Shown piece after piece: positions 3,506-24,612 of a stretch of 25,119 bases of DNA. The DNA is from Candidatus Komeilibacteria bacterium RIFCSPHIGHO2_01_FULL_52_14 (lineage in GTDB: Bacteria; Patescibacteriota; Patescibacteriia; UBA1558; 2-01-FULL-52-15). Within the stretch, counting starts at the first letter, position 1. Every line of letters starts with the position of its first letter. The position numbers and the translations under genes are program-made. The stretch spans positions 1-25,119 of the forward strand of contig MHKK01000037.1 in NCBI GenBank assembly GCA_001818365.1, in the 5' to 3' direction. The notes under the pieces are model-generated. The model searched no databases. It saw nothing but the letters and a program-made list of their open reading frames with translations, and was not told the origin of the DNA.

Positions 3506-5269
3506 TTGAAAGGGTATAAGGAATCTGCTAGTATTCGCTCCGTTATGAATAAATACCGAGTTGAGGCAAAAACACATCGTCTCGCGACACCGACACAGGT
3601 GCGCGTGAGCATTTTTTTAATTGTCATATTGACCATCTCCGCCGTTTTCGTGGCTGTTCCGCAAAGCATTTTGGCAAAAATCAACCTTTCCATTCCCTTT
3701 TTCTCCCGATTCTACACGCATCTCGGTCTTGATCTTCAGGGAGGCACGCACCTGGTCTACCAAGCCGATCTCGGTAATATTGCGCCTTCGGAGCGCGATT
3801 CGGCCCTTGAGGGCGCAAGAGACGTCATAGACCGCAGAGTAAACTCGCTCGGTGTTGCCGAACCGGTCGTACAAACTTCCCATCAGGCAGGCAATTCCCG
3901 CATTATTATCGAGTTGGCCGGTGTTCTGGACGTCAATCAGGCAATTAAAAAAATAGGGGAGACGCCGCTTTTGGAATTTATGGAAACCGGGACTGCGACA
4001 ACCACTAAACCGACAAGTGAGCAGATTTCGGCTGTTGAAGAGAAAAATAAAGCCCAGGAGCAGGCAGCCAACGATATCATCAAACGGCTGCAGAAAGGCG
4101 AGATTTTCGAGGAGCTGGCAAAGCAATATTCCGAAGACCCGGGGAGCAAGGACAATGGTGGCGATCTGGACTGGATCGGTCGCGGTATCTTTACTCCGCT
4201 CTTCGAGAAAGCCATATTTGACGAAATGAAACCCGGCGATCTTCGGCCGGCGCCCCTGCAGACCGAGTTCGGATACCACGTCATTAAAAAATTAGAGGAG
4301 CGTACCACCGATACCGGCGCAAAGGAAATTCACGCCGCACACATTCTGTTCCGTACAGAGTCACTCAACCAGGACACGGGCCCCATCTGGATCAACACGT
4401 CGCTGTCGGGCAAAAATTTAAAGCGTGCCGAGGTGACCTTCACGTCGCGCGTCGGTGCTCCGGAAGTATCGCTTACCTTTGACAGCGAGGGGGCCAAGCT
4501 CTTTGAGGACATCACGCGCCGCAACGTCAACAAGCCCGTGGGCATCTTCCTCGATGGCTCGGCCATTTCAACGCCAAACGTCAACACGGTCATTACCGGG
4601 GGACAGGCGGTCATCACCGGAAACTTTTCCCTCGAAGAAGCAAAAACCCTGGCTCAACGGTTGAATGCGGGCGCTCTGCCGGTACCGATCTCTCTTTTGA
4701 GCCAGCAAACCGTCGGTCCGTCTCTCGGACGGGATTCCCTTGATAAAAGCGTCTTTGCAGGAGCCATCGGCTTCCTCCTGGTCGCCTTGTTTATGATCTT
4801 CCTGTATCGCCTGCCCGGTATTCTTGCAGTTTTGGCCCTGTGCCTCTATGCACTCATAACGGTCAGCTTATTTCAGATTATCCCGGTCACTCTTACCCTT
4901 GCGGGGGTTGCCGGTTTCATACTTTCGATCGGCATGGCAGTCGACGCGAACGTGCTGATCTTCGAACGCGTAAAGGAGGAGATCCGCAAAGGGCAAAACT
5001 TTACGAATGCCGTTGAAACCGGCTTTACGCGTGCATGGTCCTCAATACGCGATTCAAACGTCTCAAGTCTCATCACCTGTATCATCCTGTACTGGTTCGG
5101 ATCATCCATTATCCGGGGATTTGCGGTTACTCTCGCCCTGGGTATTGCCGTCAGCATGTTCTCGGCCATTACCGTCACACGCACCTACCTGCGAATCGTG
5201 ATCCGCTCGCAGGCGTTGCAGAAAACCTGGCTATTCGGAGTCAAGGCATCACATCAAACACATGCATAA
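3506..5269 (+). CDS. secD: protein-export membrane protein SecD with an embedded parvulin (PpiC-type) peptidyl-prolyl isomerase domain at about residues 172-265
   Basis: SecD hallmarks: LGLDLQGGTHLVYQAD, RVNSLGVAEPVVQ, IIIELAG, GETPLLEF, and C-terminal TM bundle motifs VDANVLIFERVKEE and ILYWFG. The embedded segment DIIKRLQKGEIFEELAKQYSEDPGSKDNGGDLDWIGRGIFTPLFEKAIFDEMKPGDLRPAPLQTEFGYHVIK matches the PpiC/parvulin rotamase signature. Start is TTG at 3506, preceded by AGGAG; an alternative ATG lies at 3545. Confidence 0.85.
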   Translation: MKGYKESASIRSVMNKYRVEAKTHRLATPTQVRVSIFLIVILTISAVFVAVPQSILAKINLSIPFFSRFYTHLGLDLQGGTHLVYQADLGNIAPSERDSALEGARDVIDRRVNSLGVAEPVVQTSHQAGNSRIIIELAGVLDVNQAIKKIGETPLLEFMETGTATTTKPTSEQISAVEEKNKAQEQAANDIIKRLQKGEIFEELAKQYSEDPGSKDNGGDLDWIGRGIFTPLFEKAIFDEMKPGDLRPAPLQTEFGYHVIKKLEERTTDTGAKEIHAAHILFRTESLNQDTGPIWINTSLSGKNLKRAEVTFTSRVGAPEVSLTFDSEGAKLFEDITRRNVNKPVGIFLDGSAISTPNVNTVITGGQAVITGNFSLEEAKTLAQRLNAGALPVPISLLSQQTVGPSLGRDSLDKSVFAGAIGFLLVALFMIFLYRLPGILAVLALCLYALITVSLFQIIPVTLTLAGVAGFILSIGMAVDANVLIFERVKEEIRKGQNFTNAVETGFTRAWSSIRDSNVSSLITCIILYWFGSSIIRGFAVTLALGIAVSMFSAITVTRTYLRIVIRSQALQKTWLFGVKASHQTHA

Positions 5270-6213: not shown

Positions 6214-6237
6214 GGGCTTTGACAAAAGCCCTTTTTT
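6214..6237 (+). terminator. rho-independent terminator after secF
   Basis: Stem GGGCTTT/AAAGCCC with loop GACA, followed by TTTTTTG. Confidence 0.6.
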
Positions 6238-6256: not shown

Positions 6257-6285
6257 TTGACGAATTTTGCCAATTATGCTATATT
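6257..6285 (+). promoter_or_regulatory. putative sigma-70 promoter: TTGACG, 17-nt spacer, TATATT
   Basis: -35 at 6257-6262 and -10 at 6280-6285. The predicted TSS near 6292 lies 8 nt before the ATG at 6300. Confidence 0.4.
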
Positions 6286-6299
6286 CGGCCATATCCACT

Positions 6300-7397
6300 A
6301 TGGCAACATCAATTCTCGACCAAGTACTGTCTTCGCAGAAGCAATCCGCTATTTCTCAGTTTGACCCTGAGCAAGTGGCTGCTAAGCTTTTTTCGATACT
6401 TTCAGAGCGCGAGCAGGACATTCTTGTGCGGCGCTATGGGCTTAAGGGAAAGGAAAAGATGACCCTTGAGGAAATCGGCAAGCAGTATTCGGTCACCCGG
6501 GAGCGCATCCGACAGGTTGAAAATGCTTCGATCAACAAAATACTGAGCGAATACCGCGATTCACTTCTGCGTGATCTTGAGGCGCTGATCCGCGACGTAC
6601 TTGAGGACCACGGCGAGCTTATGTCCGAGAATCGCCTGGTGCAAAATCTTCTCGACACCGACGCCGAGAGCGATCAATCGAAGGCGCTGGTACATTTCAT
6701 GCTGAACCAGCTTCTCGCGGAACGGCTGCAACTCGTCCGTGAATCCGATGCCGTCTATAAGACATGGTCGCTGCAAGCGGCACGATGGGATGAATTTCAT
6801 TCGATTATCGACCGGCTTGTCGAAATAATCAAAAAGCACAATGAGCCGCTCCGCCTCGAGCAGTTGCTCGACCGGGCCCGTGGAGCGGTATCCGTTCCCG
6901 AGGACGATTTCGAGCGTATTCTCGTAAACTATCTCGACGTCACGAAAAAAATTGAGGAGAACCGATTCAACGAGTGGGGTCTTTCGCATTGGAGCTTGAT
7001 CCGTCCTCGCCGCATGAACGATAAAATTTATCTGATACTGAAGCGTGAAACAAAGCCCTTGCACTTCGTTGAGATCGCAAAGCGAATCAACGATTCAAAT
7101 TTCGACAAGCGCGTTGCCTACCCTGCGACCATTCACAACGAGTTGATACTCGACGATAAGTATGTCCTGGTCGGGCGCGGCATCTATGCCCTCAAGGAGT
7201 GGGGTTATAAGCCCGGCGTCGTGCTGGACGTCATCAAGGACATCCTTCGTGAGAACGGCGCCATGTCCAAAGAGGAGATTATCACCGCGGTTTTGAAGAA
7301 CAGAATGGTAAAGAGGAGCACAGTGGTTCTCGCACTCATGAACAAGAAATTCTTTGCCAAGGATCAGGACGGCCGGTACGTGCTTGTGCAGTCATAG
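6300..7397 (+). CDS. predicted DNA-binding regulator with an N-terminal sigma-70 region-4 HTH and a C-terminal HARE-HTH (RNAP delta-subunit-like) domain. It is not a complete sigma factor.
   Basis: Region-4 signature: LSEREQDILVRRYGL..KEKMTLEEIGKQYSVTRERIRQVENASINKIL. The C-terminus PLHFVEIAKRIND...ATIHNELILDDKYVLVGRGIYALKEWG follows the HARE-HTH pattern. No sigma regions 2 or 3. The ORF track starts at TTG 6267; the ATG at 6300 (MATSILDQ...) is preferred because it lies downstream of the promoter. Confidence 0.7.
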   Translation: MATSILDQVLSSQKQSAISQFDPEQVAAKLFSILSEREQDILVRRYGLKGKEKMTLEEIGKQYSVTRERIRQVENASINKILSEYRDSLLRDLEALIRDVLEDHGELMSENRLVQNLLDTDAESDQSKALVHFMLNQLLAERLQLVRESDAVYKTWSLQAARWDEFHSIIDRLVEIIKKHNEPLRLEQLLDRARGAVSVPEDDFERILVNYLDVTKKIEENRFNEWGLSHWSLIRPRRMNDKIYLILKRETKPLHFVEIAKRINDSNFDKRVAYPATIHNELILDDKYVLVGRGIYALKEWGYKPGVVLDVIKDILRENGAMSKEEIITAVLKNRMVKRSTVVLALMNKKFFAKDQDGRYVLVQS

Positions 7398-7424: not shown

Positions 7425-8948
7425 ATGCTGCCAGACATTAATGCGTTTTTGATTCAACTTGCATCGAAAAGTCCACTCGAGGTCGGGTGGATTTTGTTTA
7501 TTAAAGGCGGGTGGATCATCCTTGCCGTCATGACCATCCGCGCCATGCTGTTGATACGGTTGTATCAACTGCAGGGCAAGTACCTTCGCAAATTTGAATA
7601 CGTACTGCTCGCGATCGACGTACCCAAGGCAAGTGAGCAAACTCCGAAAGCCATGGAACAGGTTTTTGCGACGATTACCGGGGCTCACCAGGAGATCAGC
7701 AGGCGCACGAAATACGGAACAGGAGAGGTCCAGCTCCAATTTTCTTTTGAGGTCGTCTCACTGGACGGGTATGTTCAATTCCTCGTTTACACGCCAAAAA
7801 TTTACCGTGACCTCGTCGAGGGAGCCATCTACTCGCAGTACCCCGACTGCGAGATTACGGAGGTAGAGGACTACACCAAGAATATCCCGTCGGTATGGCC
7901 AAACGATCAGTATAAACTCTGGGGGTCGGAAATTGTTCTGGCAAAAAAAGAAGCATACCCGCTTCGCACCTACCCTTCGTTCGAAGATCAGCTCTCGCAG
8001 GAGCTCAAGGACCCGCTTGCGTCGCTCATCGAAAATATGAGCCGTATCCATCAAAACGAGCAGGTCTGGCTGCAGATGATCCTCGTACCGACCGAGAACG
8101 TCGTGTGGGTCAAACGCGCCTTAAAGGAGGCCTATAAGATCGCCGGGAAAAAGACCAAGGAGGAACAAAAAACCGGATATCTGGACAGGATTCTGTCTCC
8201 GCTTTATAACTTCCCCAACTGGTTCTCGTGGCTAGCAACCGGAGGAGGCGAAACGAAACGGGACCAGCAATTCGATTTCCGCGTGCTCAATCTCACCCCG
8301 GGAGAGCGGGCGTCTGTCGAAGCCATAGAGAAAAAAGCATCAAAGCTCGGCTATATCGTTAAAATGCGTATCGTATATCTGTCGACGCCGGAACAATATC
8401 AGCCGGCGCGCGTCATTAATTCCGTTTTCGGTGCCATCAAGCAGTTCGGCGATCTGACGTCCAATTCACTGAAGCCCAACAAAAAGACCAAAACATCGGT
8501 CGTCTGGTTCAAGTTCAGATCAAAAGGCAAACAAATCCGACTCATGCGCAACTATAAGAACCGGTCATGGTTCCGCGGCTCCAAATGGTATATCCTTAAC
8601 GTAGAGGAGCTCGCCACGCTGTATCATTTCCCGTCGATAACCGTCACGTCTCCGTATCTCAAGCGTACGGAAACCAAAAAGGGCGAGGCACCGGTCCAGT
8701 TGCCGGCAAGCATTGTCGAGGAGAAAGCGGCCGAGATCGGCTCGCTCAAGACCGAGCTTGAAGGTCTGGATCTCGATAATGATTATTACGAGCAGAAGTA
8801 CGGCAAATATCGGGTGCCAAAGCCGCAAAACCTCACAGAGAAGCAGGCGACCGTCGTTGAGAAGCCGACTCTCGATACACGCTCGGATAAACCCGAGCAG
8901 GAAGCTGAATCAAAGTCCACAGCCCCAAGCAATTTACCTCTCGGATAA
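7425..8948 (+). CDS. single-pass membrane protein of unknown function (507 aa). It is homologous to the N-terminal half of the 829-aa protein at 22123-24612.
   Basis: Has an N-terminal TM helix (WILFIKGGWIILAVMTIRAMLLIRL). Alignable blocks with the 22123 ORF include FEYVLLAIDVPK vs HDILLITIPK and ILNVEELATLYHFPS vs LLNSEEMVSLFHLPE. Its TAA stop overlaps the ATG of the next gene (TAATG). Confidence 0.75.
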   Translation: MLPDINAFLIQLASKSPLEVGWILFIKGGWIILAVMTIRAMLLIRLYQLQGKYLRKFEYVLLAIDVPKASEQTPKAMEQVFATITGAHQEISRRTKYGTGEVQLQFSFEVVSLDGYVQFLVYTPKIYRDLVEGAIYSQYPDCEITEVEDYTKNIPSVWPNDQYKLWGSEIVLAKKEAYPLRTYPSFEDQLSQELKDPLASLIENMSRIHQNEQVWLQMILVPTENVVWVKRALKEAYKIAGKKTKEEQKTGYLDRILSPLYNFPNWFSWLATGGGETKRDQQFDFRVLNLTPGERASVEAIEKKASKLGYIVKMRIVYLSTPEQYQPARVINSVFGAIKQFGDLTSNSLKPNKKTKTSVVWFKFRSKGKQIRLMRNYKNRSWFRGSKWYILNVEELATLYHFPSITVTSPYLKRTETKKGEAPVQLPASIVEEKAAEIGSLKTELEGLDLDNDYYEQKYGKYRVPKPQNLTEKQATVVEKPTLDTRSDKPEQEAESKSTAPSNLPLG

Positions 8949-10687
8949 TGGATCAAAAAGCAAACAGCGCAATTACCGTTTTTGCCGCAACGAACTTCCG
9001 CAATAAGCAGCAGCGTTTCGGTATCAAACGCGAAGACCGGCGACGCCACATGTACCTTATCGGTAAAACCGGTATGGGTAAATCGCAGTTGCTGGAAAAC
9101 ATGGCGATTCAGGATATCAGAAACGGCAACGGCGTAGCGGTCGTGGATCCGCACGGCGACATGATCGAGCGGATTTTGCGATTCGTCCCGCGCGAGCGGA
9201 TCAACGATGTCGTCTATTTCAATCCCGCCGATCTCGAGTATCCGATTGCGTTCAACGTGCTCGAGAAAGTTTCTCCCGAGCAGCGTCACCTCGTCGCATC
9301 GGGGTTGATAGGCGTTTTTAAAAAGATCTGGGCCGATTCCTGGGGACCCCGTTTGGAGTACGTTCTGCATAATGCCATTTCTGCGCTTCTGGAGTACCCG
9401 AGCTCAACGCTCTTGGGCATCATGCGCATGCTCACCGACAAGAACTTTCGCAAGCGCGTCATCATGAAAGTAAACGACCCGGTCGTCAAGGCCTTTTGGG
9501 TTGACGAGTATTCCAAATACCCTGACCGGTTCCAGGCCGAAGCGATCGCGCCGATTCAAAACAAAGTCGGTCGCTTTTTGACATCGTCATTGATGCGCAA
9601 CATCGTCGGACAGGTAGCCTCAACGATCAACATCCGCGAAATAATGGATCGCGAAAAAATATTTTTGATCAACCTTTCCAAGGGACGCGTCGGCGAAGAC
9701 AATTCGTCATTGCTCGGCGCCCTTCTGATTACGAAGATGCAGCTCGCAGCCATGAGCCGCGTCGACGTGCCGGAAACGGAACGTAGAGATTTTTATCTTT
9801 ACGTCGACGAGTTCCAAAATTTCGCAACGGAAAGTTTTGCCGGCATCCTGTCCGAGGCGCGTAAATACCGTCTCAATCTGGTTCTTGCGCACCAATACAT
9901 TGCACAGCTTATTAACGATGCGAACAGTCAGGTCCGTGATGCCGTATTCGGCAACATCGGGACTCTGATTACGTTCCGCGTCGGCGCAGCCGACGCCGAG
10001 TTCATGGAGCCGGAATTCGAACCGCAGCTCACGATGAACGACCTCGTCAATCTCCCAAAGTACCATGTGTATTTGAAGCTCATGATTGACGGCGTCACCT
10101 CGAACGCCTTCTCCGCAACAACGCTGCCCCCGTACACCATCCCCGAGGATTCTGCGGAAGTTGTTGAAAAGATTATCAAATCCTCCCGTGAACGGTATGC
10201 GAAACCCCGTGAGGTCATCGAGGATAAGATTATCCGCTGGGCGGAAAACAAAGGCGATGGTGAAGGCAGCGCTGATGCTCGCGACGCTGGTCAAGCACGC
10301 GACACGAGGGATCACGAACCTCGGCGCACTGTACCGGCTGCAAGTCGACCGTCTCGACATGATGCGGCCGACACCGGCCCGGCAAAGCAGCTTTTTAGCG
10401 CTATTTGCTCGAATTGCGGCAAAGCGACCGAGACCAAATTCAAGCCGGATCCGAACAGACCTGTGTATTGCCAGGACTGCCTGCAAAAAATTAAGAGGGG
10501 AGAGTTGCCTTTAAGGCGCGAGATGCCCGAGCCACCCCGTGCAGTTTCACTGGCCGAAGCGATTGCCATGCACCAAAAACACGGACCACCTGTGCAAAAC
10601 CACGGCCAAATTGCTGAAAAAAAGCATTCCGAGCATATTTTACAGCCAAAACAAGTTGTATCGATCCCGCATAGCAGTAACACCTAG
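8948..10687 (+). CDS. FtsK/HerA-superfamily P-loop ATPase (HerA/DUF87- or VirB4/TraG-like) with a C-terminal low-complexity linker and a CxxC...CxxC zinc ribbon. It is homologous to the C-terminal half of the 829-aa protein.
   Basis: Walker A is YLIGKTGMGKSQ and a VVDPHGD motif follows, as in HerA/DUF87. Walker B is LYVDEFQNF. Arg/Gln sensor block: EARKYRLNLVLAHQYIAQL. The tail is CSNCGK...KFKPDPNRPVYCQDC. Confidence 0.8.
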   Translation: MDQKANSAITVFAATNFRNKQQRFGIKREDRRRHMYLIGKTGMGKSQLLENMAIQDIRNGNGVAVVDPHGDMIERILRFVPRERINDVVYFNPADLEYPIAFNVLEKVSPEQRHLVASGLIGVFKKIWADSWGPRLEYVLHNAISALLEYPSSTLLGIMRMLTDKNFRKRVIMKVNDPVVKAFWVDEYSKYPDRFQAEAIAPIQNKVGRFLTSSLMRNIVGQVASTINIREIMDREKIFLINLSKGRVGEDNSSLLGALLITKMQLAAMSRVDVPETERRDFYLYVDEFQNFATESFAGILSEARKYRLNLVLAHQYIAQLINDANSQVRDAVFGNIGTLITFRVGAADAEFMEPEFEPQLTMNDLVNLPKYHVYLKLMIDGVTSNAFSATTLPPYTIPEDSAEVVEKIIKSSRERYAKPREVIEDKIIRWAENKGDGEGSADARDAGQARDTRDHEPRRTVPAASRPSRHDAADTGPAKQLFSAICSNCGKATETKFKPDPNRPVYCQDCLQKIKRGELPLRREMPEPPRAVSLAEAIAMHQKHGPPVQNHGQIAEKKHSEHILQPKQVVSIPHSSNT

Positions 10688-10719: not shown

Positions 10720-11361
10720 GTGGATAACTTCAATCATCAAAAATTAATTATGCACAAAGAAAAAAAAGGATTCACCCAGCACCACTTTTTAAGTGGTAGC
10801 CATGGGTCAAGAATAGTGTCGAGTAACAAAAGTGGTGCCAGAAAGCTGGGTTTACCCAGCACCACTTTTAGCACCAAAAGTGGTGCTGGGTTCACGCTTA
10901 TCGAGCTTATCATCGTTGTGGCAATCATCGGACTGCTTGCCGCAGCGCTCTATGTGGCCATCGATCCGGCTGCACGTCTCGGTAATGCACGTGATGCGCG
11001 TAGGTACGCTGACGTAACGGCTATACTGAACGCAATTTTACAATATACGTCAGATACCTCAACACTGCCGACGCAGCTTGATTGTGCAGTAGGCACTTAC
11101 TGCATGATTCAGAATGGTGGTAGTGCTTCCGACGAAACAACGGGATCGAACTGCACGGAGCTCGATAGCAACCCGCCAACAGCTATGGCGATCGGATTAT
11201 CGTTAGTTGATAAATACCTTGCGTCTATCCCAATAGACCCGAGCGCAGCTTCCACTGCAACGAGCAGCTCAGGTTATTACCTAAAGCGATCAACGAGCGG
11301 TCGAATTACAGTCGGGTCGTGCACGAAATACCAAACTGCCTCAATCGAGGTCCAGCGGTAA
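10720..11361 (+). CDS. type IV pilin / pseudopilin (class III signal peptide, GFTLIEL N-methylation motif), copy 1, with an unusually long N-terminal extension
   Basis: KSGAG|FTLIELIIVVAIIGLLAAALYVA is a canonical prepilin-peptidase site and hydrophobic alpha1 helix with Glu+5. Four Cys are present in the C-terminal globular part. The ORF-track start is GTG. The true start is uncertain because the roughly 57-aa leader is atypical. Confidence 0.8.
   Translation: MDNFNHQKLIMHKEKKGFTQHHFLSGSHGSRIVSSNKSGARKLGLPSTTFSTKSGAGFTLIELIIVVAIIGLLAAALYVAIDPAARLGNARDARRYADVTAILNAILQYTSDTSTLPTQLDCAVGTYCMIQNGGSASDETTGSNCTELDSNPPTAMAIGLSLVDKYLASIPIDPSAASTATSSSGYYLKRSTSGRITVGSCTKYQTASIEVQR
10772..10890 (+). 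promoter_or_regulatory. structured leader element of pilin copy 1, built from repeated and inverted GCACCACTTTT / AAAAGTGGTGC blocks and including a perfect 15-bp-stem palindrome
   Basis: CCCAGCACCACTTTT-AGCACC-AAAAGTGGTGCTGGG lies at about 10854-10890. Additional copies at about 10774-10797 (ACCACTTTTTAAGTGGT) and 10827-10838 (AAAAGTGGTGCC) allow mutually exclusive pairings. Confidence 0.5.
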
Positions 11362-11417
11362 CATGACCAGGACGCATCTCCCGTAAGAGACGCACAAGAG
11401 CGCCGTTAGTTTGAGCT

Positions 11418-12023
11418 ATGAAGACCGCGAATGGATTCACCCAGCACCACTTTTCAAGTGGTAGCCATGTGTCAAGGCTAGTGTCGAGTAACAAAAGTGG
11501 TGCCAGAAAGCTGGGTTTACCCAGCACAACTTTTAGCACTAAAAGTGGTGCTGGGTTTACGCTTATCGAACTCATCATCGTTGTGGCAATCATCGGATTG
11601 CTTGCGGCAGCACTCTATGTTGCCCTTGATCCTGCAGGTCGCATTGGGAGGTCCCGCGATGCACGGCGATATACCGATGTGTCTGCCATATTGAATGCCA
11701 TATTGGAATATACGGCCGATACGACTACGTTGCCAACGAACGTCGCTGCTCTCAACACCGATGTCTACTACGTTGTTCAAAACGGCAGCAACGGGCAGGT
11801 CACTGCCGAAACAAGCATTCCGTGCAACGAAACGGGTATCCGTAACGGAGTCATCCTGGGTTCGCAACTCGTCAGTAAATATATTTCTACGATACCGCAG
11901 GATCCGAGGATCACCACAGCAACCAGCTCATCGCAATACTATATTCGTAAAACGACCAATGATAGAATCACCATTGGAGCATGTGAACACTATCAGTCGG
12001 GTTCGGTGGAAGTGCAGCGATAG
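11418..12023 (+). CDS. type IV pilin / pseudopilin, copy 2 (tandem paralogue)
   Basis: Has the same leader and GFTLIEL N-terminus as copy 1. The first roughly 190 nt are about 90% identical at nucleotide level; the globular C-terminal domain is divergent. ATG start. Confidence 0.8.
   Translation: MKTANGFTQHHFSSGSHVSRLVSSNKSGARKLGLPSTTFSTKSGAGFTLIELIIVVAIIGLLAAALYVALDPAGRIGRSRDARRYTDVSAILNAILEYTADTTTLPTNVAALNTDVYYVVQNGSNGQVTAETSIPCNETGIRNGVILGSQLVSKYISTIPQDPRITTATSSSQYYIRKTTNDRITIGACEHYQSGSVEVQR
11437..11555 (+). promoter_or_regulatory. structured leader element of pilin copy 2, duplicate of the copy-1 element
   Basis: Same block arrangement. The central palindrome CCCAGCACAACTTTT-AGCACT-AAAAGTGGTGCTGGG at 11520-11555 has one stem mismatch. 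Confidence 0.5.
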
Positions 12024-12099: not shown

Positions 12100-12160
12100 C
12101 CCCTCACCAGAGCCCTGGTGAGGGGTCTTCGTCGCTGCGCTCCTTGACAGGGGTTTTTTT
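12100..12160 (+). terminator. putative terminator region after the pilin genes
   Basis: GC-rich hairpin CCCCTCACCAG-AGCC-CTGGTGAGGGG (11-bp stem) at 12100-12125, followed 28 nt later by GGGG TTTTTTT at 12150-12160. Outer complementary CGCAGCG/CGCTGCG segments flank it. Confidence 0.4.
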
Positions 12161-12176: not shown

Positions 12177-12203
12177 TTAGCACTCTCAACCTTTGACTGC
12201 TAA
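12177..12203 (+). promoter_or_regulatory. CIRCE operator (HrcA binding site)
   Basis: TTAGCACTC-tcaaccttt-GACTGCTAA matches the CIRCE consensus TTAGCACTC-N9-GAGTGCTAA with one mismatch in the right arm. It sits directly upstream of hrcA. Confidence 0.85.
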
Positions 12204-12207
12204 TCGC

Positions 12208-12879
12208 ATGAACGTACGCCAGGAAGAATTGCTTTTTAAGCTCACTGAGGCATACCTCACGACCGCAGATCCCGTCAGTTCGGGTCTTTTGGCTCATAAG
12301 GCGGGGTTTTCGATTAGTTCGGCAACCATACGAAACGAACTTGTACAGCTCGAGGAAGAGGGCTTTCTGTACCAACCTCATACATCGGCCGGACGGATTC
12401 CGACCCTGAAGGGGATCGAGCGCTACATCGCGCAGGTGCGGGAAGCGGCCCTTCTCTCCGAAGGAGAGCAGGTACGGCTAGAGGCCATATTCAAACATGA
12501 CGGGCTCCGGGGGCTTGCTAAGGAGGCCGCGGCATACTGCAAGGCGGCAGCTGTCGTAGCGAGAAACGGAAATGATTTCTACTACACCGGCTTTTCCAAT
12601 TTGTTCTCCGCGCCCGAATGCTCGAATGCGCAGCTCGTCAGGGCAGTCAGCCGGTCCATAGACGCGCTGGAGGATGCCCTTCCGCAATTCATCGAGAGCG
12701 GGCAATCGTCGTCCCCGAAGCTCTACCTTGGAAAACATAATCCGCTCGGTGCCGACTGTGCGGTCATGTTCATCGGCGACGGGAAACATGCAAAGACGCT
12801 CGTCGGGATTATCAGCATGGTACGAACGAATTATAAAAAAAACATGGCCGTCCTGAAATCGATATCGCAGTATCTATAA
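12208..12879 (+). CDS. hrcA: heat-inducible transcription repressor HrcA, short form of about 223 aa
   Basis: The N-terminal wHTH (RQEELLFKLTEAYL...PVSSGLLA...SSATIRNELVQLEEEGFL) and the C-terminal LVGIISMVRTNYKKNMAVLKSISQYL are HrcA-like. The ORF-track TTG at 12193 lies inside CIRCE, so the ATG at 12208 is preferred. Confidence 0.75.
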   Translation: MNVRQEELLFKLTEAYLTTADPVSSGLLAHKAGFSISSATIRNELVQLEEEGFLYQPHTSAGRIPTLKGIERYIAQVREAALLSEGEQVRLEAIFKHDGLRGLAKEAAAYCKAAAVVARNGNDFYYTGFSNLFSAPECSNAQLVRAVSRSIDALEDALPQFIESGQSSSPKLYLGKHNPLGADCAVMFIGDGKHAKTLVGIISMVRTNYKKNMAVLKSISQYL

Positions 12880-12881
12880 CT

Positions 12882-13436
12882 ATGGAACCTTTACAGCACG
12901 ATACGGCTCCGGCAGCCGACAAAAAATCTTCGCACCAAGCATCACCGCCCGCGAAAGGCACAGCCGATGTCGCTTCGCTTACTTCCCAGCGTGACGAGTA
13001 TCTGAACGGCTGGAAACGCGCTCTCGCCGATTATGAAAACTTCAAGCGCGAATCAATCGAGCGTCTCGATACGCTTACGCGAACGACTCTGAAAATGTTC
13101 CTGCTCGATCTCCTGCCGTTCATTGATGCCTACTACACAGCGCTTTCCCACGTTCCCGAAAGCGAACGCTCACACCAATGGTACCTGGGCTTGCTCCAGG
13201 CGCAAAAGCTCTGGGAACAGCTTGCTCAGCGACATGCCATACGGCGCATGAACAGCATCGGTGTTCAATTCGATCCTGCCCGACACCACGCACTGGCAAC
13301 AGCACAGGAAACCGGCAAAAAAGAGAACGAGATCACCGGGGTCGCGCAGGAGGGCTACCTGATACGTGATGAGGTTCTGCGTCCGGCCCTCGTAACCGTC
13401 AATAAAATTGCTCCGGAAGCCGCTCCTCAAAAATAA
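12882..13436 (+). CDS. grpE: nucleotide exchange factor GrpE
   Basis: LNGWKRALADYENFKRE and the C-terminal GVAQEGYLIRDEVLRPALVTV are GrpE signatures. It sits between hrcA and dnaK. Confidence 0.85.
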   Translation: MEPLQHDTAPAADKKSSHQASPPAKGTADVASLTSQRDEYLNGWKRALADYENFKRESIERLDTLTRTTLKMFLLDLLPFIDAYYTALSHVPESERSHQWYLGLLQAQKLWEQLAQRHAIRRMNSIGVQFDPARHHALATAQETGKKENEITGVAQEGYLIRDEVLRPALVTVNKIAPEAAPQK

Positions 13437-13467
13437 CTAAACAACAACTATCATTAATACCAATTCT

Positions 13468-13884
13468 ATGTCACTCATCAAATGGACCCCGCTGTACGAA
13501 CCCTTCCTCGATATGGAGAAAGCGTTCAATGAAATGGGCATGCTGCAGGCGGCATCGTTACCCCCGATCGACCTCTATGAGAAAGGTGATCAGCTTATCG
13601 TTGATGTTGCCCTTGCCGGCATTGACCCGTCCCAGGTAAAGATCAACATCGAGGACAATGTCCTGAATATCGAAGGGTCGGTGGAAAAGAAATCGGAGGT
13701 TGATGAAACCAACTATTACCGGAAAGAGGTACGCAGCGGATCCTTTCACCGCGTTATAGCCCTCCCGACAGCCGTAAACGGAAGCGAAGCAAAGGCCGAG
13801 TACGATAAAGGGATTCTTCGTATCAGGATGCCAAAAAAGGAAGAAGTGAAGCCGAAGAAGATAGATATCACGATAAAGAAATAA
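13468..13884 (+). CDS. small heat-shock protein, Hsp20 / alpha-crystallin family
   Basis: The alpha-crystallin domain pattern IDLYEKGDQLIVDVALAGIDPSQVKINIEDNVLNIEG...YYRKEVRSGSFHRVIALPTAVNGSEAKAEYDKGILRIRMPK. Confidence 0.85.
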   Translation: MSLIKWTPLYEPFLDMEKAFNEMGMLQAASLPPIDLYEKGDQLIVDVALAGIDPSQVKINIEDNVLNIEGSVEKKSEVDETNYYRKEVRSGSFHRVIALPTAVNGSEAKAEYDKGILRIRMPKKEEVKPKKIDITIKK

Positions 13885-13902
13885 CTTACCCACCCTCGCA
13901 CT

Positions 13903-14238
13903 ATGCAACCACAAGCGCATCAACTGAGCCTGAAACTGCTTGAAAAGTGTCCTTCGTGTCAGTCCTTCGTTCCGGCGGCCAACGTTCACATTCTGGCCGA
14001 AAGCGATACCAAACTGCTGGCGCATCTTGCCTGCCAGCACTGTACCGCGAAATACCTGACCTATATCGTCAATCAGGAGCACGGCATCGTCGGCAACGCG
14101 ATTGTAACCGACCTGAGCTACGCCGAAGTACTCGCTTTTGATTCACTGAAGCCGCTTAATGAGGATGACGTGCTCACCCTCCACCGGTCAATCCATTCGA
14201 ACGACTTTATTGCGTATATTCGAAACAAAACTCATTAA
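13903..14238 (+). CDS. small hypothetical protein with a CxxC-N24-CxxC zinc-ribbon-like motif, embedded in the heat-shock operon
   Basis: CPSCQSF...LACQHCTAK. The ORF fills the gap between hsp20 and dnaK in the same orientation. No recognised family. Confidence 0.5.
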   Translation: MQPQAHQLSLKLLEKCPSCQSFVPAANVHILAESDTKLLAHLACQHCTAKYLTYIVNQEHGIVGNAIVTDLSYAEVLAFDSLKPLNEDDVLTLHRSIHSNDFIAYIRNKTH

Positions 14239-14248
14239 TTACTCATAA

Positions 14249-16137
<1,889 letters not shown>

Positions 16138-16138
<1 letters not shown>

Positions 16139-16428
16139 TGGCTGAAGAAAAACGTGAGATACAAATTCGCATCCCTGACGACGTATTGAAAGGCAGGTAT
16201 GCGAACATAGTACGGATCGATACGACACGCGAGGAATTCATAATGGACTTCGGAGTCATAAACCCCCAGCAGGGAACCGGTATCGTTACCGAGCGGATCA
16301 TTATGAATCCCGCGCACGTCAAACGCATGATCGAGGTATTGAATCGCGTCATGCAGGGATACGAAAAAAGCCACGGAACGGTCGCTCCCGCGGAGCAGCA
16401 AAAGGAGATCGGCTTCACCACCGCCTAA
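16138..16428 (+). CDS. small conserved hypothetical protein (96 aa) between dnaK and dnaJ; tentatively a DUF3467-like family member
   Basis: The ORF is start/stop coupled to dnaK (TAATG). Family assignment is from memory of similar small proteins (EIQIRIPDD...YANIVRIDTTREEFIMDFGVI) and is not verified. Confidence 0.5.
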
Positions 16429-16434
16429 AGCGAT

Positions 16435-17541
16435 ATGGCGAAGGACTACTATGCACTCTTGGGCGTTAACCGCAACGCAACCGATGCGGAGATTAAGGCC
16501 GCGTTCCGGCGCCTTGCGCACGAGCACCACCCTGATAAGCAGCAAGGCAACGAGGCGAAGTTCAAGGAAATAAACGAAGCGTACCAGGTACTCGGTAACA
16601 AGGAGAAACGAAGCCAGTACGATCAGTTCGGTACGGCGTTCGAAGCCGGCGGAGCAAACCCGTTTGGTGGTTTTGCCTGGCAGGATATGCGCGGCGGAAA
16701 TCCGTTCGGCAACGGATCGTTTCAGGGCACGCAATTCGATTTCGGCGATCTCGGTGAGATGTTCGGCGATGTGTTCGGTTTCGGCTCAGCCAGAACGGCA
16801 AGCGCCGATCGCAGTACTCGTGGTGCGGACGCTGAACTGACCATACCGCTCTCATTTGATGAAGCATATTTCGGAGCAGAAAAATCTCTCGAGCTCATGC
16901 TCGACGCGTCCTGCGAGCATTGTCTGGGATCGGGAGACGAGCCGGGTGCTCGTATCAGCAAATGCACGACCTGCGACGGCAAGGGTGTCATTACTCAAAT
17001 GCGTACGACATTCTTGGGAGCAGTCAGAACGCAATCCCGATGCGGCACGTGTAACGGAACGGGGAAACGCTCGTCAAAAAAATGCACCGTCTGCCACGGC
17101 AGGACAACCGTTCAAAAGCACCAGACGCTCAACGTTAAGATCCCCGCAGGCATCGATCCGACCCGCACGATCCGGCTCGGCGGCAGAGGACACGCTGGCA
17201 GCCGTAGCGGTTTGCACGGCGATATTTATATTCGCGTCACCGTTTCCCCTCACCGGTTGTTTGAACGCGAGGGCGATGATATAAAAAGTACCGAGGAGAT
17301 TCCGCTGTCGCTTTTGGCACTTGGCGGCACTGCCGAAGTACAAACTCCTACCGGACCCGCCAAACTCAAAGTTCCCGTTAATACGAAAAGCGGCACTCGC
17401 TTCATATTGCGAGGCAAGGGCTTTGAGCATCTATCGGGACGAGGCAGAGGAGACCAATATGTTACCGTGCATGCGCGAGTACCTGAAAGGATGACACCCC
17501 AGCGAAAGAAGATGCTTCTTGAATTTGAAAAAGGCGAATAA
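16435..17541 (+). CDS. dnaJ: molecular chaperone DnaJ
   Basis: J-domain with HPD (YYALLGV...HEHHPDK), a G/F-rich linker, and four CxxCxGxG zinc motifs (CEHCLGSG, CTTCDGKG, CGTCNGTG, CTVCHGRT). Confidence 0.95.
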   Translation: MAKDYYALLGVNRNATDAEIKAAFRRLAHEHHPDKQQGNEAKFKEINEAYQVLGNKEKRSQYDQFGTAFEAGGANPFGGFAWQDMRGGNPFGNGSFQGTQFDFGDLGEMFGDVFGFGSARTASADRSTRGADAELTIPLSFDEAYFGAEKSLELMLDASCEHCLGSGDEPGARISKCTTCDGKGVITQMRTTFLGAVRTQSRCGTCNGTGKRSSKKCTVCHGRTTVQKHQTLNVKIPAGIDPTRTIRLGGRGHAGSRSGLHGDIYIRVTVSPHRLFEREGDDIKSTEEIPLSLLALGGTAEVQTPTGPAKLKVPVNTKSGTRFILRGKGFEHLSGRGRGDQYVTVHARVPERMTPQRKKMLLEFEKGE

Positions 17542-21646: not shown

Positions 21647-21652
21647 TGCGCC

Positions 21653-22126
21653 ATGGTAGAGAGTTCTCAAGAGCGAATTCCCCAGCGCACCAACGAGCAG
21701 CCAGCTCCGATGCGGCAGACCGAGCGGGAATCAAAACTCGAGCAGGCGTCCGAGCGTCAACGGTCGGCTGATGAGCAGGCGGCAGCCGCAGTTGCCGCTA
21801 AAATTCGTGAAACCGCGGGTGCCAGACCGGCGATCATGGTGACGGCCAAGGATCCGGAACTCAAAGCAATCGAAGATATTCTTGCCGAGGGTTTGGAGGA
21901 ATTTTTTTTAAACCTGCCGCCGTCGGACCAGCAATCATTTAAACGAACAGGCGAGGAAACGGCGCAGAAAATACGGATTGTCATACGGAAGAAAACATCG
22001 CGCATCAAGGATATCGTTGCATTGATCGCAAAATGGCTTAAAGCGCTCCCCGGCATCAATCGTTTTTTTCTTGAGCAGGAAGCGAAGATCAAGGCCGACA
22101 AGATAGTTCAGCGTTTCCGATTATGA
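21653..22126 (+). CDS. small hypothetical protein (about 158 aa from the ATG at 21653) with a low-complexity Q/E/R/A-rich N-terminus and a conserved-looking C-terminal half. It is start/stop coupled (ATGA) to the downstream 829-aa gene.
   Basis: The open frame overlaps the downstream gene by 4 nt. The ORF-track start at 21584 would overlap corA. The internal M at MVTAKDPELK is an alternative start. Confidence 0.45.
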   Translation: MVESSQERIPQRTNEQPAPMRQTERESKLEQASERQRSADEQAAAAVAAKIRETAGARPAIMVTAKDPELKAIEDILAEGLEEFFLNLPPSDQQSFKRTGEETAQKIRIVIRKKTSRIKDIVALIAKWLKALPGINRFFLEQEAKIKADKIVQRFRL

Positions 22127-24612
22127 TCTGGCAACTGATCGCGATTCTGATCTTACTTCTGTTTGCTTTCACACTCGTGATCCTTTTTCGCGTTGTTTTG
22201 AAAAATAGAAAGCGCCGCAGCTACAAACACGACATACTGCTCATCACCATACCGAAGTATGCCGATCTTGGTAGCAAGCAGGAAATCCCGATTAAAGAGC
22301 GCCTTTCGCAGGTAGAAAACCTTTTTGCATCGCTCGCGTCAACCCGGGCAGAACGCGGCATCGAGCCCTATTTTACGGGCAGAAGCGACCACTTTGCTTT
22401 GGAAATGGTTTCACATGACGGAAGCATAGGTTTTTACGCAGCACTCCCGCCGCAAGCCACCGAATTTTTTATCCAGCAGACGCAGGCCGTCTACCCGCAC
22501 GCGCACTTTGAGCGCGTCTCCGACTATAATATTTTCCAGCCGCATGCCGCCGTCTTAAGCGGCCATCTCGTCTTCAGGAGGCATTTTATTTTTCCGCTGA
22601 AAACATATCGCTCGTTCGATCACGATCCGATGGATGCCGTGATGAGCGCCCTGTCCAAAATTCCCCGCGATTCGGGAGCCACCATTCAGTTCGTTATTCG
22701 CTCGGCACGCAAGGAATGGCATGCGGAGGGACGTCGCATCAGCAAAGAAGCGTATCGCACCTCGTCGCTTCAGGAAGCGTTGAAGAGCGCAAAATCCAAG
22801 AGCGGTTCTTCTGTGGTTTTCCACGCGCTCGGCAGCACGGCACGCGTCGTCGGCTCGACGTTCGTAAGCACGCCGAAAAAGGACAAAGAAAAAATACCGA
22901 CCATGCAGCAGCATACCTTGACTCCACAGGAACAGGAGGCGGTCAAAGCGATCGAGGAAAAAAATAATAAGGGCGGCTTTGACGTCAACATCCGCATCAT
23001 CGTTTCGGCTCCGGACTCGCAGCATGCGGAAGCGCATCTGCGAAACATCATGAACGCCTTCGGCCAGTACAACAGTTACGAATTCGGCAACGCGTTCAAG
23101 CCGCTCTTTCATCATTCGCACGACAAGATTGTCAATGATTTTATTTACCGGTACTTCAATCCGGCAGCTTCCCTCCTGCTGAACTCAGAGGAAATGGTCT
23201 CACTTTTCCATCTGCCGGAACGCACGACCGTATCCAATGTGCTGTGGCAAAAAGCGCGAAGCGCTCCGCCGCCGATGGAGATGCCCACGGAAGGAATTCT
23301 GTTCGGTCATTCAGTGTATCAGGGAGCGACGGTCGAGGTCCGCATGAAAGACACTGACCGGCAACGGCACGTATACATGATCGGGCAGACCGGTACCGGA
23401 AAATCGAATCTTCTGGAGTCCCTGGCGGTGCAGGACATCAAAAGGGGAGCAGGCGTATGCGTGATCGACCCGCACGGCGATCTGGTTGATCATATTCTGG
23501 GGAATGTCCCTCCTGAGCGGTACAAAGACGTCATTATTTTCGATCCTTCCGATACGGACCGGCCGCTCGCACTCAACATGATGGAATTTACAACGCCGGA
23601 GCAGAAGACCTTTGTCATCAACGAGATGATATATATCTTCGATAAGCTCTATGACCTTAAAACAACCGGGGGCCCCATGTTCGAACAATACATGCGGAAC
23701 ACCATGTTGTTGATGATGGAGGACCCCGCGTCCGGTTCGACGCTGTTGGAAATTCCAAGGGTACTGGCGGACGAAAAATTCAGACGCTACAAGCTCACGA
23801 TGACAAAAAACCCGGTCGTCCGCGATTTCTGGGAGAAGGAAGCCCACAAGGCGGGCGGCGATGCGTCCCTTGCCAACATGGTGCCTTACATCACGAGTAA
23901 GCTGAATCAGTTCATCGCGAACGATATCATGCGGCCGATCATCGCACAGCAGAACAGCTCGTTCAATTTCCGCGACGTGATGGACTCCCAAAAGATACTG
24001 CTGATAAACCTTTCAAAGGGACGCATCGGGGACCTCAACAGCATGCTGCTCGGCATGATCTGCGTCGGGAAACTTTTGATGGCGGCGTTGAGCAGGGTGG
24101 ACGTCGAGAAGGAGCTTCGCAAAGATTTCTACCTTTATATCGACGAGTTTCAGAACTTCGTGACGGAGAGCATTGCCGTCATACTCTCCGAAGCCCGAAA
24201 GTACAAGCTCAACCTGACGATGGCGCATCAGTACATAAATCAGCTGGTGAAGAACAACAACACCAACGTCAAAGACGCCGTCTTCGGCAACGTCGGCACC
24301 ATCATCGCTTTCCGCGTTGGCGTTGACGATGCCGAGCCCATTGCTCAGCAGTTCGCTCCCGTGTTCGATAAATTCGACGTCATGAATATCGAAAAATACC
24401 ATTGCTATATCCGTCTCCTGATCGACAATCAAAACCCGCCGGCGTTCAGTTTTAAGCCGACACGGCCGCCTGCCGGCAACCGGGCCGTTGCGCAGTTACT
24501 CCGTGAGCAGTCCCGTCTCCGCTACGGGCGCCCGCGGGCGGAGCTTGAAAAGGAGATATTCACCCGAACGAGCATACCTGCGGCTCCCGCCCCCTTGCCG
24601 CCGATTGCGTAA
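22123..24612 (+). CDS. membrane-anchored FtsK/HerA-superfamily ATPase (829 aa). It is a single-polypeptide paralogue of the gene pair 7425-8948 plus 8948-10687.
   Basis: N-terminal TM helix. The N-terminal half aligns to the 507-aa protein. The C-terminal half has Walker A YMIGQTGTGKSN, VIDPHGD, Walker B LYIDEFQNF, and EARKYKLNLTMAHQYINQL. It has no zinc-ribbon tail. Confidence 0.85.
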   Translation: MIWQLIAILILLLFAFTLVILFRVVLKNRKRRSYKHDILLITIPKYADLGSKQEIPIKERLSQVENLFASLASTRAERGIEPYFTGRSDHFALEMVSHDGSIGFYAALPPQATEFFIQQTQAVYPHAHFERVSDYNIFQPHAAVLSGHLVFRRHFIFPLKTYRSFDHDPMDAVMSALSKIPRDSGATIQFVIRSARKEWHAEGRRISKEAYRTSSLQEALKSAKSKSGSSVVFHALGSTARVVGSTFVSTPKKDKEKIPTMQQHTLTPQEQEAVKAIEEKNNKGGFDVNIRIIVSAPDSQHAEAHLRNIMNAFGQYNSYEFGNAFKPLFHHSHDKIVNDFIYRYFNPAASLLLNSEEMVSLFHLPERTTVSNVLWQKARSAPPPMEMPTEGILFGHSVYQGATVEVRMKDTDRQRHVYMIGQTGTGKSNLLESLAVQDIKRGAGVCVIDPHGDLVDHILGNVPPERYKDVIIFDPSDTDRPLALNMMEFTTPEQKTFVINEMIYIFDKLYDLKTTGGPMFEQYMRNTMLLMMEDPASGSTLLEIPRVLADEKFRRYKLTMTKNPVVRDFWEKEAHKAGGDASLANMVPYITSKLNQFIANDIMRPIIAQQNSSFNFRDVMDSQKILLINLSKGRIGDLNSMLLGMICVGKLLMAALSRVDVEKELRKDFYLYIDEFQNFVTESIAVILSEARKYKLNLTMAHQYINQLVKNNNTNVKDAVFGNVGTIIAFRVGVDDAEPIAQQFAPVFDKFDVMNIEKYHCYIRLLIDNQNPPAFSFKPTRPPAGNRAVAQLLREQSRLRYGRPRAELEKEIFTRTSIPAAPAPLPPIA

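Follow-up and report, generated by a model that had tools for sequence, protein, structure and literature searches.

We found that the same two-part module, a predicted VirB4-like N-terminal domain followed by an ATPase of the coupling-protein type, is encoded twice in the window, by which we mean the whole 25,119-nucleotide stretch of DNA analysed, a chromosomal segment of a Patescibacteria (candidate phyla radiation, CPR) metagenome-assembled genome (MAG) of Candidatus Komeilibacteria. One copy is a single fused gene for 829 amino acids (aa), and the other is a split pair of adjacent genes for 507 and 579 aa. The fused gene and the split pair are ancient paralogues, and on balance each probably provides one complete protomer of the same kind of machine. 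Both protomers are complete, conserved and of one design with intact Walker motifs; one is covalent and the other comes in two pieces, and each has accessory elements of its own. The elements concerned are listed below (ORF, open reading frame; TM, transmembrane; T4CP, type IV coupling protein; AF2, AlphaFold2).

22123..24612, plus strand: fused 829-aa gene, with an N-terminal TM helix, a DUF8128 domain (predicted to resemble the VirB4 N-terminal domain) and a T4CP-type ATPase
22123..22209, plus strand: TM helix of the fused protein, aa 1-29 (hydropathy scan; helix 2-32 in the AF2 model)
22225..23286, plus strand: DUF8128 domain of the fused protein, aa 35-388 (alignment to the 507-aa ORF)
23299..24561, plus strand: T4CP-type ATPase domain of the fused protein, aa 393-813 (BLASTP, Pfam, AF2, Foldseek, hhalign)
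23383-23406, plus strand: Walker A of the fused protein, GQTGTGKS (motif)
24127-24147, plus strand: Walker B of the fused protein, FYLYIDE (motif)
21653..22126, plus strand: 157-aa ORF, partner of the fused gene in part of the family
7425..8948, plus strand: 507-aa DUF8128 protein, N-terminal part of the split pair
7476-7571, plus strand: TM helix of the 507-aa protein, about aa 18-49, followed by its DUF8128 domain at aa 57-427
8706-8945, plus strand: C-terminal 80-aa tail of the 507-aa protein, residues 428-507, ending in PxNLP
8948..10687, plus strand: 579-aa T4CP-type ATPase with a disordered tail, C-terminal part of the split pair
9062-9085, plus strand: Walker A of the 579-aa ATPase, GKTGMGKS; Walker B, FYLYVDE, at 9791-9811
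10385-10492, plus strand: Zn ribbon of the 579-aa ATPase, CxxC-x17-CxxC, PF23477, aa 480-515 (Pfam)

Homology of the fused gene and the split pair

BLASTP placed residues 3-388 of the fused protein on the 507-aa protein at residues 30-427 (428 columns with 23% identity, 77.8 bits, E 3e-19), and residues 393-813 on the 579-aa ATPase at residues 11-429 (45% identity, 374 bits, E 2e-124). Since both halves aligned, both are homologous and collinear, as the initial annotation of this DNA had proposed. It had also allowed that the ATPase half alone might be homologous; the pairwise alignment showed the N-terminal similarity to be genuine, and chance similarity of the N-terminal halves is ruled out by the E value together with the family-wide alignment.

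The split genes overlap by one base in TAATG (stop TAA 8946-8948, start ATG 8948-8950) and lie in different frames, and the 157-aa ORF overlaps the fused gene in ATGA (22123-22126). The junction between the two halves had been placed exactly at TAATG. The overlap is there, but the correspondence is approximate, with the 80-aa tail of the 507-aa protein and the N-terminal ~10 residues of the ATPase having no counterpart in the fused protein. Similarly, the description of the 507-aa product as a membrane protein suits its single-pass anchor but overstates the case, as one N-terminal hydrophobic helix is joined to a large soluble domain and the protein is not polytopic. The Zn ribbon PF23477 of the 579-aa ATPase was absent from the fused protein in Pfam. 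The proposal that the two split polypeptides form one unit gained support from the existence of the fused paralogue, from translational coupling, and from family-wide adjacency, the ATPase gene following the split DUF8128 gene in 49 of 55 metagenomic loci with enough flanking sequence.

Distribution of the family and age of the duplication

Homologues were collected as the 120 best matches per family (fused, stand-alone DUF8128 and stand-alone ATPase), and fused genome loci as the best 80 of at least 600 matches in a scan of species-representative genomes. The fused ORF was 100% identical to P0001, a protein of Candidatus Komeilibacteria bacterium RIFCSPLOWO2_01_FULL, and precomputed matches to DUF8128 (PF26449) were present on P0001 and on P0121, which is 99% identical to the split ORF. 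Among the best 120 of each family, fused proteins measured 806-871 aa and carried DUF8128 and T4CP domains with no Zn ribbon, stand-alone DUF8128 proteins measured 409-535 aa, and stand-alone ATPases measured 517-651 aa. All 120 of these ATPases carried the CxxC-x17-CxxC ribbon and none carried DUF8128, in agreement with the early remark that the fused copy lacks the zinc-ribbon tail. A DUF8128 profile matched 4,905 cluster representatives (50% identity clusters, E <= 1e-3), 3,205 of them at E <= 1e-10.

At least 10 long Patescibacteria contigs occurred in all three homologue lists, and on one Joint Genome Institute (JGI) contig (loci L001 and L003) the split pair and the fused gene lay about 14 kb apart, which confirmed their co-residence directly. 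We then compared the copies in 11 same-contig triplets. Fused and split copies from the same contig shared 25.0% identity in the DUF8128 domain and 45.7% in the ATPase, and those from different genomes shared 25.3% and 45.4%. Fused copies compared with one another reached 47% and 71%, and split copies 60% and 80%. Both domains gave congruent trees with fused and split copies in two separate clades. As paralogue identity within a contig equals that between genomes, the duplication must be ancient, and the same equality ruled out recent duplication or gene conversion. On these sequence comparisons, the whole module was duplicated before these lineages diverged, with both copies vertically inherited since. 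The pattern had been presented as a feature of one genome; it is instead ancient and common to many related Patescibacteria genomes. [quoted passage not shown]

The split might instead be an artefact, a second fused copy broken by a frameshift or by faulty assembly, or decayed into a pseudogene, and the two split ORFs do overlap by one base in different frames. We give this practically no credence. The split state is conserved in the best 120 homologues of each half and in the 49 of 55 loci mentioned above; the junctions vary, with gaps of two nucleotides in L001, five in L085 and three in L086; the split proteins have a lineage-specific tail motif and Zn ribbon; and their sequences are better conserved than those of the fused proteins (60% and 80% against 47% and 71% identity). 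Conservation of the split state thus refuted an assembly or frameshift artefact.

The best 80 genome-scan matches were all full-length fused genes, with record titles naming Komeili-, Uhr-, Falkow-, Moran-, Magasanik-, Buchanan-, Niyogi-, Taylor-, Nomura-, Zambryski-, Doudna- and Peribacteria. Several third-party annotation (TPA) MAG titles were unreliable as taxonomy. Many TPA records with a Patescibacteria-type gene (L009, L010, L014, L016, L022, L025, L027, L028, L034, L049, L066 and others) were titled 'uncultured Gammaproteobacteria', 'Bdellovibrionales', 'Methylomirabilota' or 'Bacillota', and such titles are probably taxonomic mislabels or bin contamination.

Close proximity of the paralogues holds for the window and for L001/L003, but as a general rule it was dropped, because among the 80 fused loci just 1 showed another ATPase at a distance of 10 kb or less. 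On a Nomurabacteria contig (L080:2619-5874), a second T4CP-like ATPase of 496 aa was seen 3.7 kb 5' of the fused gene, 42% identical to the split ATPase and without a Zn-ribbon match. The ORF before it, of 561 aa, does not resemble DUF8128 (hhalign probability 0.2%), and the two may be a diverged or replaced partner.

The ATPase is a motor of the coupling-protein type

In Pfam, TrwB_AAD_bind (PF10412) matched the two motors with 42.7 and 55.2 bits against a cutoff of 20.5 bits. TraG-D_C, T4SS-DNA_transf and DUF87 were also above their gathering thresholds and lay together with TrwB_AAD_bind on residues 407-739 of the fused protein. The motor family profile reached TrwB with 95.8% probability (E 7e-9) in hhalign, against 10.6% for TrwK/VirB4, and the only PDB sequence matches of the motor were TrwB and HerA. 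Walker A and B were intact and invariant in the alignment of both paralogues, as in the P-loop of T4CPs. The AF2 model of the fused protein (predicted local distance difference test, pLDDT, 88; predicted template modelling score, pTM, 0.78) matched TrwB in Foldseek with target-normalised TM-scores of 0.64-0.70 over 406-459 columns. In this predicted model an all-helical insertion, about aa 492-621, sits between the core strands in the manner of the T4CP all-alpha domain.

The motors fell outside the named subfamilies. All NCBIfam T4CP models (TraD, CD1115, TrbC) scored far below cutoff, the best being TraD-type models (TIGR03743, 55.4 bits against 366). TIGR00929 VirB4_CagE gave 16.8 bits against a cutoff of 643, Pfam CagE_TrbE_VirB gave no match, and the NCBIfam models for CedD (30.5 against 600) and CedB (21.1 against 700) matched the P-loop region alone. 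The two-helix TM domain that stands right before the nucleotide-binding domain of T4CPs was not found; one helix is present, followed by the ~350-aa DUF8128 domain.

The simplest view would be that the two are ordinary coupling proteins of the Patescibacteria T4SS, encoded away from virB4 and feeding substrates to that channel. The motor is indeed of T4CP type by profile and fold, NCBI annotates it as 'type IV secretion system DNA-binding domain-containing protein', and T4CP genes often lie far from virB4 (PMC12102498). This view is weakened because T4CPs are more widely spread than VirB4 (homologues in 2,918 of 3,035 genomes, VirB4 in only 2,417), are rarely linked to virB4 (148 of 5,713), and occur where relaxases are nearly absent (PMC12102498). 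In addition, the two-helix TM domain is replaced by one helix and a VirB4-NTD-like domain (NTD, N-terminal domain), the conserved neighbours are housekeeping genes (secDF, the sigma-like gene, corA), and the Se T4SS has been described without a recognisable coupling protein (PMC10633639). We therefore regard it as unlikely.

A housekeeping DNA motor of the FtsK or HerA kind, acting in chromosome segregation or repair at the membrane, is a very improbable alternative. It would fit the FtsK-HerA superfamily membership, the DUF87/HerA central domain scores of 37.2 and 25.1 bits, the presence of HerA (4d2i) among the fold matches, the near-universal occurrence in the clade in a core-gene context, and the Zn ribbon and neighbouring helix-turn-helix (HTH) protein. 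The best matches, however, were consistently conjugative coupling proteins and not FtsK or HerA, and neither an FtsK gamma nor a HAS-barrel domain was found.

DUF8128 is predicted to fold like the VirB4 N-terminal domain

The AF2 model of the 507-aa protein had a pLDDT of 81.6, and its top 13 Foldseek matches were all TrwK chains. The fused model was collinear with full-length TrwK over about 920 columns, and with TrwB over only about 410-460. As the Foldseek lists of the 507-aa model held no P-loop ATPase and TrwK chains without the Hcp1 fusion were matched as well, the matched part must be the VirB4 N-terminal domain. DUF8128 is thus predicted to adopt the fold of that domain, as expected of a VirB4 relative. 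At the sequence level, DUF8128 gave no match to VirB4, Pfam families or PDB chains. The fold matches 7o41, 7o43 and 8rtd represent the R388 T4SS. In the R388 system the VirB4 N-terminal domain mediates dimerisation.

A basic stretch, KNRKRRSYKH, follows the TM helix of the fused protein, and with no second TM segment before the ATPase, DUF8128 would lie on the cytoplasmic side. The unit would thus have the architecture of VirB4, an N-terminal domain plus an ATPase, with its own TM helix and a motor closer to coupling proteins. The predicted fold also backs the view of the split polypeptides as one unit, because VirB4 always carries its N-terminal domain and its ATPase on a single chain.

The 80-aa tail of the 507-aa protein is mostly of low confidence in the AF2 model. 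Within its PPxNLP motif, P501, N503, L504 and P505 are invariant or nearly so across the family, and we see this conserved tail as a candidate docking element.

About 17 of the 80 fused homologues had no TM helix and carried instead a soluble N-terminal extension, conserved and some 150 aa long, that contains the motifs PEEEL-YLR, HD--MEEL and DDFHRFLVQY (L050, L060, L063, L065, L068, L070-L072, L074, L075 and L077-L083; for example L071:9512-10000). They formed one clade in the neighbour-joining (NJ) tree, including records labelled Nomura-, Taylor- and Zambryskibacteria.

The fused state is probably ancestral

The initial annotation had called for a phylogeny that would tell which version came first. 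An NJ tree of 111 motor domains was built with TrwB as root and 100 bootstraps. The split clade was monophyletic in 100 of 100 bootstraps and lay within the fused diversity; fused monophyly was recovered in only 6 of 100, and a Peribacteria sequence was basal. CedB and CedD are single chains (PMC11868833), as is VirB4, and with the split clade inside the fused diversity, fission after duplication is the more parsimonious course. Provisionally, the fused state is probably ancestral, and the split lineage probably arose by duplication and gene fission and gained its C-terminal Zn ribbon. Its additions are the conserved C-terminal motif of DUF8128 and the Zn ribbon of the ATPase.

Each paralogue has its own neighbours

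The genes next to the split pair in the window are the following.

6267..7397, plus strand: 376-aa protein with sigma-70 region 4 and HARE-HTH (RNA polymerase delta-like) domains (Pfam, NCBIfam)
10720..12023, plus strand: two prepilin-type genes (N_methyl, GspG-like), directly 3' of the split pair (Pfam, NCBIfam)

The 376-aa protein has an RpoD-like sigma-70 region 4 at about residues 30-105 and a HARE-HTH domain at about 250-312, and is 51% identical to the protein at the same position in L001. In 48 of 58 metagenomic loci, and also in L085 and L086, such a gene is the immediate 5' neighbour of split DUF8128, and secF is upstream of the split pair in 36 of 49 loci. The three long contigs L001, L085 and L086 share the gene order around the split pair; in all three a pyrimidine-nucleoside phosphorylase gene lies downstream, though it was found in only 7 of 47 loci.

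The sigma/HARE gene is the most conserved neighbour of split DUF8128 and is still adjacent in L167, where the ATPase has moved away. DUF8128 stands alone with no following ATPase in six of the 55 loci (L106, L149, L157-L159 and L167), and SecDF and/or the sigma/HARE gene are still upstream in them. In L159 the gene after DUF8128 is DUF6580, on the opposite strand, with dus coming next, and in L167 a GT4 glycosyltransferase and DUF4012 come after it.

Pattern matching placed a terminator-like site after secF at 6214-6231 and a promoter-like site at 6257-6285, and the next intergenic terminator-like site on the plus strand at 12139-12154; further matches at 7468-7495 and 9550-9571 lie in coding sequence. 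These patterns suggest that one transcription unit begins at the sigma-like gene and reaches as far as the second pilin gene. The idea that the two pilins downstream are functionally linked to the split pair was rejected, as the link is conserved in none of 49 loci; the pilin adjacency is specific to the window genome and may reflect co-transcription. In the longest ORFs of the tandem prepilin genes the N-methylation motif lies at residues 56-78 and 45-67, which would mean unusually long leaders or, alternatively, true starts further downstream.

On the fused side, a homologue of the 157-aa ORF was found by hidden Markov model (HMM) search directly 5' of the fused gene in 29 of the 80 genome loci, and the ORF at the same position in L003 was 36% identical (E 2e-28). 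It had no Pfam or NCBIfam match. It showed no similarity to the sigma/HARE protein, and a relationship to the N-terminal extension of the TM-less homologues was rejected as well (hhalign probability 0.5%). The early notes that the fused copy has a different small upstream ORF, and that the two states might track with particular neighbours, are thus both supported, the split state going with the sigma70-r4/HARE-HTH gene and the fused state with the 157-aa ORF. The fused gene has corA as its divergent neighbour in about ten loci. In the window, the corA start (minus strand, CAT 21652-21654) overlaps the start of the 157-aa ORF (plus strand, ATG 21653-21655) in the palindrome CCATGG (21650-21656), so that no intergenic space is left for a promoter; the ORF may start at Met20 (21710), near where homologue conservation begins.

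No relaxase or VirB domain was detected in the called genes of L001, L003, L085 and L086, apart from two T4SS_pilin genes (PF18895, VirB2-like) in L003, and VirB3, VirB6 and VirB8 were absent from the window and the related loci examined. The two T4SS_pilin genes (L003:12987-13750) lie about 2.5 kb 3' of the fused gene, after a 194-aa ORF and dnaX.

In a rival reading, both paralogues would co-assemble into a single heteromeric machine, such as a hexamer of dimers of the VirB4 kind. They co-occur in the same genomes, often 11-15 kb apart, the VirB4 N-terminal domain dimerises as noted above for 7o41, 7o43 and 8rtd, and two prepilin genes follow the split pair in the window. The nearest analogy would be CedB and CedD, co-occurring paralogues that are both required for DNA import (PMC11868833). 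We consider co-assembly possible but doubtful, as the conserved accessory genes or domains differ between the paralogues, the pilin linkage is found in 0 of 49 loci, a second ATPase lies within 10 kb in only 1 of 80 fused loci, the scores of the CedD model (30.5 against 600) and of the CedB model (21.1 against 700) fall far short of their cutoffs, and the interaction itself would be drawn by analogy. The initial suggestion of two specialised machines is supported in part: the accessory parts are distinct and conserved, separate substrates would be one reading, and co-assembly as proposed for CedB/CedD would fit equally well (PMC11868833).

Model of the protomer and points for and against it

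We return to the favoured reading of two complete protomers of one design. Each protomer would consist of a single-pass anchor, a cytoplasmic DUF8128 domain of about 350 aa and a P-loop motor like those of TrwB, TraD and VirD4 with an all-alpha insertion. The split form would be made as two translationally coupled polypeptides, presumably reassembling non-covalently. By analogy with TrwB hexamers and VirB4 rings, each protomer may oligomerise into a membrane-tethered ring at the cytoplasmic face, which would use ATP to recruit or translocate a macromolecule. The paralogues would be functionally differentiated and have different adaptors: the split form would use the sigma70-r4/HARE-HTH protein and Zn ribbon, and the fused form the 157-aa protein. 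Four points make us lean towards DNA or nucleoprotein as the substrate: the motor is of coupling-protein type and has an all-alpha domain, a Zn ribbon is present, an HTH protein is encoded by a neighbouring gene, and CedB/CedD set a precedent; proteins may also be substrates.

Several points tell against this reading. DUF8128 and TrwK gave an hhalign probability of 0.6%, and Pfam and PDB profile searches were empty; the similarity to the VirB4 N-terminal domain comes only from Foldseek matches of AlphaFold models. Domain scans found no relaxase, VirB gene, channel partner or substrate gene among the window ORFs, and in none of 49 related loci did homologues of the window pilins follow the split pair. 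The 17 fused homologues without a TM helix mean that membrane tethering is not universal in the family. The tree is an NJ tree from saturated distances with a very distant outgroup. Finally, the single T4CP homologue to have been tested genetically, from a Saccharibacterium and possibly a member of this family, was non-essential (PMC12102498).

Comparison with known systems

Like VirB4 (TrwK of R388; PDB 7o41, 7o42, 7o43, 8rtd), the module combines an N-terminal domain with a C-terminal ATPase in about 800 aa. Unlike VirB4, it has no N-terminal sequence similarity to that family, its motor is nearer to TrwB than to TrwK, and it has its own TM helix in place of relying on VirB3; Patescibacteria moreover have a separate bona fide VirB4 (PMC12102498). 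With T4CPs (TrwB of R388, TraD, VirD4, Cag-beta) it shares the P-loop domain with an all-alpha insertion and the N-terminal membrane anchor. It differs from them in having one TM helix or none, a VirB4-NTD-like domain of about 350 aa between anchor and motor, about two copies per genome, and a chromosomal setting among housekeeping genes, with relaxase and T4SS genes absent from the vicinity (PMC12102498).

CedB and CedD of the Sulfolobales Ced system, which act at the membrane with type IV pili, are likewise a paralogue pair, each member joining a TM helix and a VirB4-NTD-like domain to an ATPase of the FtsK-HerA superfamily (PMC11868833). They are, however, archaeal and have a HerA/VirB4-type motor, whereas the motor here is of T4CP type; their N-terminal domains each cover only part of the VirB4 N-terminal domain, and no split/fused dichotomy has been described for them. 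Precedents for a VirB4 module spread over separate or fused genes are TrsD with TrsE (pGO1-type MPF_FATA) and the VirB3-VirB4 fusions. TrsD, a protein of its own with remote similarity to VirB4's N-terminal part, occurs abundantly beside virB4 in Patescibacteria, and no VirB3-VirB4 fusions were found there (PMC12102498). TrsD is linked to virB4, while DUF8128 is linked instead to T4CP-like genes.

The DUF8128 and T4SS DNA-binding annotations and the T4CP homologue counts are already known. We found no paper on DUF8128 or PF26449, and no mention in the consulted papers on T4SS or Patescibacteria of the split/fused paralogy or of a VirB4-like N-terminal domain on these motors. What is new is that the two T4CP copies per genome appear to be one ancient paralogue pair, that DUF8128 is predicted to be a VirB4-like N-terminal domain, and that the same protomer would occur in nature both as one chain and as two. 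The split/fused pair offers a definable protein-protein interface and a natural experiment on gene fission, together with a possible evolutionary link between VirB4 and VirD4, and candidate adaptors can now be named in the sigma70-r4/HARE-HTH protein and the 157-aa protein as well as the Zn ribbon. A large part of bacterial diversity belongs to Patescibacteria, and their macromolecule exchange with hosts is largely a gap. A bolder proposal, which we hold to be quite unlikely, is that DUF8128-T4CP motors form a third lineage of the VirB4/VirD4 clade, common throughout Patescibacteria and independent of the canonical T4SS, which would have retained the N-terminal domain of VirB4 type on its coupling-protein motor, and in which fused and split rings would jointly, in the manner of CedB/CedD, move DNA or nucleoprotein across the cytoplasmic membrane. 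If true, such motors could be a route of nucleic-acid acquisition for biosynthetically poor epibionts.

Gene order of the window

The large ORFs of the window are nearly all on the plus strand and of housekeeping type. Their order is as follows.

5' part: hpf, secA, secD (with an inserted peptidyl-prolyl isomerase domain), secF
Then: the sigma-70-region-4/HARE-HTH gene, the 507-aa ORF, the 579-aa ORF, two prepilin-type genes
Then: hrcA, grpE, hsp20, an unknown ORF, dnaK, DUF3467, dnaJ, an SPFH protein gene
3' end: dusB (minus strand), corA (minus strand), the 157-aa ORF, the 829-aa ORF

The heat-shock cluster at 12193-17541 reads hrcA-grpE-hsp20-(111-aa unknown)-dnaK-DUF3467-dnaJ, with the DUF3467 gene between dnaK and dnaJ. 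The domain inserted in secD (3506-5269) is a PPIC-type peptidyl-prolyl isomerase (rotamase) domain, and it is kept in all relatives examined (L001, L085, L086 and L159).

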